DNA of 4,098 bases, taken from the IMG/VR virus record IMGVR_UViG_2690316345_000002; one strand, written 5' to 3'. Source of the stretch: a virus. Its lineage: Duplodnaviria > Heunggongvirae > Uroviricota > Caudoviricetes. The position numbers are program-made. The stretch's first letter is position 1. Each line of letters opens with the position of its first letter. Below, one piece after another: positions 1 to 3,000 of this stretch.

Positions 1-3000
1 CCCTCAAAAACGTAAGCCTCTACGCCACGAAGTAATCCTAAGTTATTGATTTTTTCGAAAACCACCATTGGGGGATTTCGGATCACACCTCGAACCGCCA
101 GTCGTTCAATGGATTGTTTCACCTTGTCATGACGACTTCCCACCAACTCAGCGATTTCAATGCTTGTCATTTTGATGACGTTGCTATTTATCAGCTCGTT
201 CATTGTCATGTCCTCTCATATTGAAAATTCAGCAATAAAAAACCCAGCCGAAGCTGGGTTTGTTAAGTTGTCAATTGTCAGTAGCGATGCAGTGAAGGCG
301 GCAATTCTTTGTTCTTAAGCCTTTCCCATGCCAGAAGGTTCGTTGGTCCGTCTGGCTCATTGATATCAACATCTCGTGTGTGATTAATTAAAACGCCCCT
401 CGCCCTCCCGATGATATACGAGAACTCATAGCCGTAGTCGTGGCATATGCCGGAATAGCCAGACTGAATCAGTTTTAATGCGGGATACAACTCACGGAAC
501 AATGCCTGTGAGCGGTTGGCATAATCCCACAGCCATACAAGGCTGTCTGTTTCTTTTGCGGAAAGCCCGTTGAGCTTCTTCTCTTGTTTGCCAGTATTTT
601 TCTCGCACTGGCTGAAATAGCAGTCTTCCAGTTTTTCGAACACATCCCACGCCTGATCAGTTTCGAGCATTTTTGCGTGACGGGCTGCGCCTCGTTCTGT
701 CCAGAGGATGAGGGAGCGGGCTTTCGGGGAAATTTGTAACCCTCTTAAAGATGGTTGCAAATTTTGTGAGTTACTTAAAGTAACCCGCAAAATTTTCAAC
801 TCATCACCAACAACCTTGAAAAAGTGTTTACCCTCAACAAAACGCTCGGAATTACGGGTGTAATTTACTTTGATGTTGTTGATCTCGGTACAGTAAAGCT
901 GTGCCAGTAACTCGGTAGTGATAACGGGAATTTGGTTGTGTGTAATTGGGGAAAGAGTTTCGACAGAAATCTGAGTGGCCATAACGATAACTCCGTACAT
1001 TTGGACATTATCGCCACCGTCAGGTGCTAATCATCATGGTGGCGAACTGTGCGGGGTTAGCACTACCGGGTACGGAAACCGGCGAGCCTTTCGGCTCCCC
1101 CACACAGCCCGCCATAAATCGCGAATGTGACTGTGCAAACGATATGAAAAAAGACGCGGGCGCGTCTCATATCGCTCCGTAAACATCCGGGGTGCTAATC
1201 CCGACGCCAGATTTTGCTGGCGCGTGAGGAATATAGCCCCGAATAAATCATCGCGTCAATCACCTTGTTTTCCTCGCACGATGTCTTAGCCACCGGATAT
1301 CCCACAGATGAGCCGTGTAGTTGAAGGTTTTTACGTCAGATTCTTTTGGGATTGGCTTGCGTTTATTTCTGGAGCGTTTCGTTGGAAGGTATTTGCAGTT
1401 TTCGCAGATGATGTCGGTGATACTTCTTCGCTGTCGCCTCATGCCGCCCTTCTGACGCCCTGCCCGATCGCCATCAATGCCGCTTTGGATACGGTAGTAA
1501 ACATCCGTCGAGGACTGATGAACGGTCGCCAAATCAGCAGCATGGAACCTTTGCTGTTTCCCTTCTTCTCCAGCCCTGTCGATGGTTCGATAAAATTAAT
1601 CCGTCCATCAGTGATAATGCGAACTTCGTCAACACTCTCCAGAGCCTTGCTGAACCATCCGACTGACATATCCTCTGGCACAAGCATCACTACCGTCTGT
1701 CGCTGTTGTATGCACTGCTCAGCGGCTTTTTCCACCCACGGCCTGATATTGCTGTACGGTGGGTTATTCCAGATTGCACCGTGGCTTACCCACTCAGAAT
1801 TGAGCGCGTCGTCGACCTCAGTTAGCCAGTGAGCGCACAGAGCGTTTTTGTCGCTCGCAGCTGAATCCAGCCAGAATCCAAACTCAATATCCAGTGCATC
1901 AAAAAGCCAAAGCGGCGTTTGCCAGCAGTCCTTGTCGTGTGCTGGTGTATTTGATTTGATAGTCATGCAGCCCTACCTTTTCGTTGTGACCATTCATACT
2001 CTCGCCGGGAGTCATCACTCCACCGCACGTTGCGCTCTGAGCCGAACCAGAACATGATTTCGATAAGCTCAGTCATGTTGGCCTTTCGCATTTTGCTGGT
2101 ACGCACGCCAAGCATGACAACGCCACCGTCGATACCAGGCGCACTTCTTTGCTCCAGTTTTTTGGTCTTAAGCCACAGGGCAGTGAACAGGTCTTTCCAG
2201 TCTTCCGGCGCCAGCCGTTGACCATGCCATAGCACCTGACGCGAAACATCGTTCAGCATCGGCCACATGCGGTCATTCTGCGCTTTGCTGCGCTTGGGTT
2301 CTTTAACGTGGACTTCGTGGGGTGACTTGTCGTCGATGGGTAGTGAGAGAATGGCGTCTATGGCGTTATTTCTGATTGCTTCGTTGCGAAGCAGAAAGGT
2401 TTGCTTCATCTCCTGCTCTCCGGTTCCATTTTTCAGCCGCCGCAGCAACTGATGGTGCCCATGCCCCCCCTGGCTTCACAGAGGTCACATTCTGCATAGC
2501 CCCACACATCAATATTTATTCCGGCCTCAACCCACAGACGAGCATTACCGCCGCAAAACGGACATTCTTTTAGCTTTGGCTGGGTTAATGATAGGTCGCT
2601 CATGCTCACTCCTTCACTTAAAATCCAGACTCCGGATAATTCTGTTGCGCTGAAACTCATTGTTGAGTTTGAACAACCGTCGAAGAACACGGTCACGCGG
2701 ATAGCGTCGTGCGGCAGGTGAATGCTCATACAACTCATCAAGCGGCAAACTGAACGATGAACGATACCGATACCAACGCACCAACTCTTCACGAAAATTA
2801 GCCCTGACAAGCTCAGCTATCGTACTCATTTCTTAAAACCTCCTCAAACGCATTCTGACGCATTTTTCATTCTCGCTGCTTATCGGCTGCCTTGCACGTG
2901 CTTACCTCACCACAGAGCGATTGTGATGCCTTAAAAGCGATTTATTGAAGTGATATTTGCTTAATCGAAATTCTTTTCTTTGATTCCTGCGGCCCTGATG

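Follow-up and report, generated by a model that had tools for sequence, protein, structure and literature searches.

The 4,098-nucleotide stretch of viral DNA analyzed here (the window; IMG/VR virus record IMGVR_UViG_2690316345_000002, Caudoviricetes) is the nin region of a Shiga-toxin (Stx)-type lambdoid phage or prophage, as judged by megablast, and carries on its minus strand, at positions 1439–1966, a DNA methyltransferase gene, dam, an allele of M.EcoVT2Dam. It is very probable that this gene encodes a stand-alone N6-adenine methyltransferase of the PF05869/TIGR01712 family, most likely acting on GATC, which would be produced from the delayed-early nin operon and probably serves to keep the phage DNA methylated. 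Existing annotations already cover the gene along with its position and likely specificity, and an almost identical copy has been characterized.

Family membership and integrity of the methyltransferase gene

The dam open reading frame (ORF) runs from an ATG start to a TGA stop and encodes 175 residues. Its product is a full-length member of both relevant families, matching Pfam PF05869 "DNA N-6-adenine-methyltransferase (Dam)" with an E value of 1.2e-64 (217.5 bits against a cut-off of 28.1 bits; profile positions 1–167 of 169) and the NCBIfam equivalog TIGR01712 "phage N-6-adenine-methyltransferase" with 264.1 bits (cut-off, 97.05 bits; profile positions 1–165 of 165). The preliminary description of this DNA, made from the sequence alone, had placed an NPPY-motif methyltransferase at these positions, and the reading frame, the residues N68-P69-P70-Y71 (nucleotides 1765–1754), and the two profiles all confirm it. 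Neither the (D/N)PPY motif nor the L-D-x-x-A motif upstream of it is disrupted. The former (catalytic motif IV) is encoded by AAC CCA CCG TAC, and the latter belongs to a motif I-like segment, L33-D34-S35-A36-A37-S38, situated at the end of the first β-strand of the AlphaFold2 model (E31–36), in which D34 is presumed to be the acidic residue that binds S-adenosylmethionine (AdoMet). An alignment that includes HP1 Dam, T1 Dam, and eight enterobacterial homologues shows no variation at L33, D34, A37, N68, P69, P70, or Y71, and neither does an alignment of 43 sequences.

At the nucleotide level, dam differs from three phage copies by 5–10 synonymous and 0–1 non-synonymous substitutions. The 10 synonymous versus 1 non-synonymous differences from the VT2-Sakai gene show that dam is under purifying selection. 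It is hardly conceivable, then, that dam is a remnant, inactive or in decay, that rides along passively in a mosaic region. Not all genes of the window are intact, the neighboring Lar-like gene being frameshifted, but the frame of dam is full-length, all family-invariant residues are retained, and its substitutions are almost all synonymous; moreover, all 8 records listed among 1574 matching Escherichia coli records annotate a "phage N-6-adenine-methyltransferase" at this place, between NinB and NinE. With the motifs intact and the substitutions nearly all synonymous, a pseudogene reading of dam was rejected.

Closest relatives and orphan status

The dam product is 100% identical to ORF175 of Lahn1 and 174/175 identical (99.4%) to orf32 of VT2-Sakai (NP_050531), which is M.EcoVT2Dam. 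The sole protein difference from the latter, V51 for A51, is conservative and falls in a low-confidence loop of the model (residues 46–51, predicted local distance difference test score (pLDDT) < 50). VT2-Sakai orf32 also shares with the window gene its length of 175 residues, its ninB and ninE neighbors, and the 4-nucleotide overlaps with them, whereas the replication gene farther upstream differs, VT2-Sakai having a DnaB-like P and the window a lambda-type P together with ren. Identical or near-identical genes occur in Phi24B, 933W-type phages, HK97, Lahn1, and CP-1639. By tblastn, 1899 phage records contain a homologue of the dam product, and in 244 of these it is ≥95% identical. The nucleotide sequence itself, again at ≥95% identity, occurs in 1566 of the 5426 complete E. 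coli genomes searched, and a single genome has up to five copies. The gene marks nin regions of the Stx and HK97 types, and the genomes of Shiga-toxin-producing E. coli (STEC) can hold up to five additional copies of a GATC methylase. In methylome data, a phage GATC methylase is indistinguishable from host Dam (PMC6602927).

More distant relatives of the same PF05869 family are the dam products of phages HP1 (173 residues, 35% identity) and T1 (34% identity), in which N-P-P-Y and L-D-x-x-A are invariant; the T1 protein has a ~45-residue N-terminal extension and an internal insertion relative to the window enzyme. Both are GATC methylases. Their genes lie in unrelated contexts, not beside ninB or ninE.

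The dam product is an orphan methyltransferase, with no cognate endonuclease gene adjacent. As the preliminary description had stated for the window, no restriction endonuclease was matched among its ORFs by Pfam, NCBIfam, PHROGs, or PADLOC, and none was found in the fuller contexts of AU5Stx1 and VT2-Sakai. The best PADLOC matches of the dam product are orphan-methyltransferase (oMTase) models, and a hidden restriction or defense partner, considered as a candidate, was not found by PADLOC. The nuclease NinG/Rap, encoded farther downstream in AU5Stx1 and VT2-Sakai, is junction-specific and serves recombination, not restriction.

Target specificity and predicted fold

The dam product most likely methylates the adenine of GATC to N6-methyladenine. 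This assignment follows from its near-identity to M.EcoVT2Dam, an orphan methyltransferase that PMC6602927, with reference to Radlinska & Bujnicki 2001 (PMID 11720311), describes as "known to target 5'-GATC-3'". The earlier view that the target specificity could not be read from the sequence is thereby overtaken.

The fold was examined in an AlphaFold2 model built from 43 homologues (pLDDT 84; predicted template modeling score 0.84). No PDB chain matches the dam product by sequence. The model has a class I AdoMet-methyltransferase (Rossmann-like) fold. Its best structural match is PCIF1, an RNA cap adenosine methyltransferase, followed by the DNA adenine methyltransferases M.TaqI, M.BseCI, and HsdM; E. 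coli Dam (7.5), DpnM (6.8), and T4 Dam (6.6) are weaker matches that span fewer residues, and the picture given by Foldseek is similar. As modeled, therefore, the dam product appears to be essentially a minimal catalytic domain, γ-class-like, and closest to PCIF1 and the M.TaqI-type enzymes. It is worth comparing with both groups of DNA adenine methyltransferases. The α-class enzymes E. coli Dam, T4 Dam, and DpnM carry out the same reaction, probably on the same GATC target, and have a Rossmann-type AdoMet core in common with it; nevertheless, the dam product does not match the profile of E. coli Dam and T4 Dam (Pfam MethyltransfD12), and PF05869 is the only Pfam family that matches it, even at E ≤ 10. 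The label "Dam-type" of the preliminary description therefore holds for function but not for family-level homology to E. coli or T4 Dam. The γ-class enzymes M.TaqI, M.BseCI, and type I HsdM share only 13–18% sequence identity with the dam product, and their target recognition resides in large domains or subunits of its own. The dam product, by contrast, is essentially the catalytic domain alone; its AdoMet-binding motif precedes NPPY, and the protein has no room for a separate target-recognition domain.

To our knowledge, no member of the PF05869 family has a solved structure. For this reason, and because a target-recognition domain is lacking, we also considered that GATC might be read in a structurally new way, by a dimer or by the β-hairpin of residues 121–140, or that the substrate or partner in vivo might differ from the result of plasmid over-expression, for which the MT-A70-type methyltransferase of these phages is a precedent. 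Such a departure seems quite improbable and, if true, would be a property of the whole family and not of this window.

Even less probable is that the physiological substrate is something other than GATC DNA, be it RNA or a DNA motif that differs from GATC or is less strict. An Stx-phage enzyme annotated as a GATC methylase, M.EcoPA8orf6770P, prefers 16S rRNA when it is with its partner protein (PMC10810198), and the best fold match of the dam product, which lacks a separate target-recognition domain, is itself an RNA cap enzyme. However, M.EcoPA8orf6770P is the product of a different gene, the dam product is near-identical to an enzyme reported to methylate GATC, and its next fold matches, M.TaqI, M.BseCI, and HsdM, are DNA enzymes. 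M.EcoPA8orf6770P/M.EcoGV is likewise borne by Stx phages, annotated as a GATC adenine methyltransferase, and devoid of a nuclease partner, but it is gp5, belongs to the MT-A70 family with a DPPW motif, requires the partner protein PNB-2, and prefers 16S rRNA (PMC10810198). An identification of dam with this "prophage-encoded rRNA methyltransferase" was rejected, since gp5 is an MT-A70/DPPW protein encoded elsewhere, near the left end of the phage.

Gene overlaps and neighborhood of dam

The gene occupies the place that ninC and ninD have in lambda, as previously noted; in lambda, NinB and NinE are indeed separated by NinC and NinD. Its start shares an ATGA with the ninB stop and its stop shares an ATGA with the ninE start, so that both junctions have the stop/start overlap of a coupled gene pair (Table 1). 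These overlaps, also pointed out in the preliminary description, were borne out by direct reading and by re-extraction of both junctions, and both are annotated in AU5Stx1, VT2-Sakai, and Lahn1. From the 4-nucleotide overlaps, the translation of dam is probably coupled to that of ninB and ninE, as it is in the majority of nin genes.

The coupling is, however, best regarded as generic packing of early phage operons and not as a partnership with NinB and NinE, because diverged homologues overlap unrelated neighbors and such overlaps are widespread in lambda, where 4-nucleotide overlaps join P/ren, NinB/NinC, NinC/NinD, NinE/NinF, NinG/NinH, and NinI/Q (lambda coordinates). The window has overlaps also at P/ren and ren/ninA-like. 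The homologues of 66–68% identity in Yersinia and Providencia prophages (loci L007–L012) are not beside ninB or ninE and overlap unrelated neighbors by 1–4 nucleotides. At the three Yersinia loci, the homologue follows genes for YqaJ-exonuclease, DUF1317, DNA_pol3_theta, and DUF5405 proteins and, in all three, adjoins an uncharacterized ORF far from the NinB/NinE context; at one of them (L009), it lies 0.6 kb upstream of an integrase gene. In Providencia, it is located between the replication genes and Q, the nin-equivalent region, with a Lar-like gene nearby at two of three loci. We therefore rejected the ninB/ninE adjacency as a conserved functional partnership, the Yersinia, Providencia, HP1, and T1 copies all having other neighbors. 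These contexts show dam behaving like a cassette that is mobile within the early operons of phages.

Several database proteins (P0002, P0005, P0011, P0013, P0022, P0038, P0088, P0115) have PF05869 fused to NinE, NinB, CII, RusA, holin, or Q-antiterminator domains. These fusions probably arose from frameshifts or gene-calling artefacts where start and stop codons overlap, or they mark recombinant junctions.

Proposed role and expression

In lambda, read-through of tR2 by antitermination is the established logic of the operon. Here, dam would be part of the delayed-early rightward pR transcript, reached by antitermination past the tR2-like terminator, and it is because of its position behind this terminator, together with lambda biology, that we expect dam to be made mainly during lytic growth or prophage induction. 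Consistent with this, Phi24B dam, whose protein is 100% identical to that of VT2-Sakai, is one of four CMAT-identified genes with transcripts following the lytic cycle (PMC3342100). The dam product would then transfer the methyl group of AdoMet to N6 of the GATC adenine, a reaction supported by the literature on its near-identical relative. The virion DNA of lambda and P22 is under-methylated by host Dam, possibly as replication outruns the host enzyme (PMC8022706), and a phage GATC methylase may top up the methylation of fast-replicating phage DNA where host Dam lags. Progeny DNA would in this way be shielded from GATC-cutting restriction enzymes and from the effects of GATC sites that are methylated on one strand or not at all, and this would extend to hosts poor in Dam. 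The presence of a Lar-like anti-restriction gene in the same operon is consistent with such an anti-restriction theme.

GATC is scarce in the window. Seven sites (81, 655, 881, 1466, 3642, 3714, and 4062) were counted against 15.5 ± 3.6 expected from 200 dinucleotide-preserving shuffles, none of which (0/200) had fewer than seven. One of them (1466–1469) lies in the 3' end of dam, 24 nucleotides upstream of the ninE start. GATC-poor regions have been described in STEC prophages (PMC6602927).

An alternative that we regard as unlikely, though less so than those discussed above, is that the dam product is mainly an epigenetic regulator rather than a protective enzyme. It would then act in addition to host Dam and set the methylation of GATC sites that govern phage promoters, how stable lysogeny is, or how often induction occurs. 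The authors of PMC3342100 suggest that Phi24B Dam may supplement host Dam, without which 933W lysogeny is not stable (cited there from Murphy et al. 2008), and they detected Dam protein immunologically in lysogen cultures; given the depletion of GATC, the sites that remain could be functional. However, dam resides in the nin operon behind the tR2-like terminator and its transcript tracks the lytic cycle, not lysogeny; the window yielded no cluster of regulatory GATC sites; and the contexts of the Yersinia homologues, all three away from NinB/NinE and one near an integrase, argue for a function independent of context. A regulatory role thus fits lytic-cycle expression less well than a role in protection.

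Several points weigh against the protective, GATC-directed reading and the coupling proposed with it. Because E. coli hosts are Dam+ to begin with, it is not evident what the phage would gain from another GATC methylase, and a knockout phenotype of dam was not found in the searchable literature. The GATC assignment is second-hand and carried over from the near-identical allele, and overproduced Dam-like enzymes can modify off-target sites (PMC10810198, discussion). As to translational coupling, the dam and ninE starts, which lie in the 4-nucleotide overlaps, have Shine-Dalgarno-like sequences of their own, so that independent initiation is possible at both.

Other features of the window

The entire window is matched at 94–96% identity in Stx1a-, Stx1-, and Stx2-converting phages, and ≥80% of it is covered by 49 phage records (megablast). 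Every gene is on the minus strand (Table 1), and the ORFs around dam were assigned to P, Ren, ORF97, DUF7301, Lar-like, NinB, NinE, Roi/Ant-like, and Rha-like proteins. The Lahn1 counterpart of the ninA-like ORF is annotated as ninA, together with the tR2 terminator. The phrog_343 gene probably starts at the GTG within a GTGA overlapping the ninA-like stop, not at the TTG chosen by the ORF finder; the GTG start gives 92 residues, as the AU5Stx1 annotation has.

Table 1 Features of the window, listed along the minus strand.
Feature	Position	Strand	Evidence or remark
Replication protein P, lambda-type, C-terminal part	3597–4097	−	
ren	3310–3600	−	
ninA-like ORF, 25 codons (MTIYITELVTGLLVIAGLFIWGRGK)	3236–3313	−	Start ATGA overlaps ren stop
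tR2-like intrinsic terminator	3261–3284	−	Terminator scan; within ninA-like ORF, upstream of nin genes
Uncharacterized ORF, phrog_343	2961–3254	−	
DUF7301 gene	2614–2829	−	
Lar-like restriction-alleviation gene	2433–2603	−	Start at 2603
ninB (Orf-family recombination mediator)	1963–2409	−	Upstream neighbor of dam; PF05772, E 1.7e-48
Shine-Dalgarno-like AAGGTAGGG	1971–1979	−	In ninB 3' end, 4–12 nt upstream of dam ATG; putative function
ATGA, ninB stop (TGA, 1965–1963) and dam start (ATG, 1966–1964)	1963–1966	−	Junction GGGCTGCATGACT
dam, phage N6-adenine DNA methyltransferase, 175 aa	1439–1966	−	PF05869/TIGR01712
Motif I-like L33-D34-S35-A36-A37-S38	1853–1870	−	AlphaFold2 strand E31–36
Catalytic motif IV N68-P69-P70-Y71	1754–1765	−	
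Shine-Dalgarno-like GAAGGG	1447–1452	−	In dam 3' end, 4 nt upstream of ninE ATG; putative function
ATGA, dam stop (TGA) and ninE start (ATG)	1439–1442	−	Junction GGGCGGCATGAGG
ninE	1260–1442	−	Downstream neighbor of dam; PF05322, E 8e-44
Promoter-like site	1259–1230	−	
c4-a1b1 target sites	1184–1236	−	Rfam, 49.8 bits
Terminator-like hairpin	1168–1151	−	Terminator scan
isrK Hfq-binding RNA	1147–1223	−	Rfam, 74.4 bits
C4 antisense RNA	1035–1119	−	Rfam, 78.8 bits
Roi/antirepressor-like gene	278–1000	−	ORF6N + P22_AR_C
Terminator-like hairpin, AAACCCAGC-TTCG-GCTGGGTTT then TTTATT	240–261	−	Terminator scan; strong
Rha-like gene, start only	from 209	−	

Within the Lar-like gene, the run of G at 2464–2470 contains seven G in the window versus six in AU5Stx1, Lahn1, and VT2-Sakai. 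The extra G shifts the frame, so that the ORF stops at 2433 after 56 residues, whereas by their coordinates the genes in AU5Stx1 and Lahn1 encode 78 residues and overlap ninB. Either the homopolymer was misread in sequencing, or the Lar-like gene has truly been inactivated.

Downstream of ninE, ~260 nucleotides are non-coding and contain small-RNA genes. The c4-a1b1, isrK, and C4 matches there are all above the Rfam gathering scores, and the region 1035–1259 (minus strand) resembles a C4 antisense-RNA module of the P1/P7 type (IsrK-like), which lies inside the nin region, immediately upstream of the antirepressor-like gene. Sub-threshold, weak Rfam matches to rsmX and istR extend across 237–357; their probable cause is the hairpin at 240–261, which sits between the Roi/antirepressor-like gene and the Rha-like gene.

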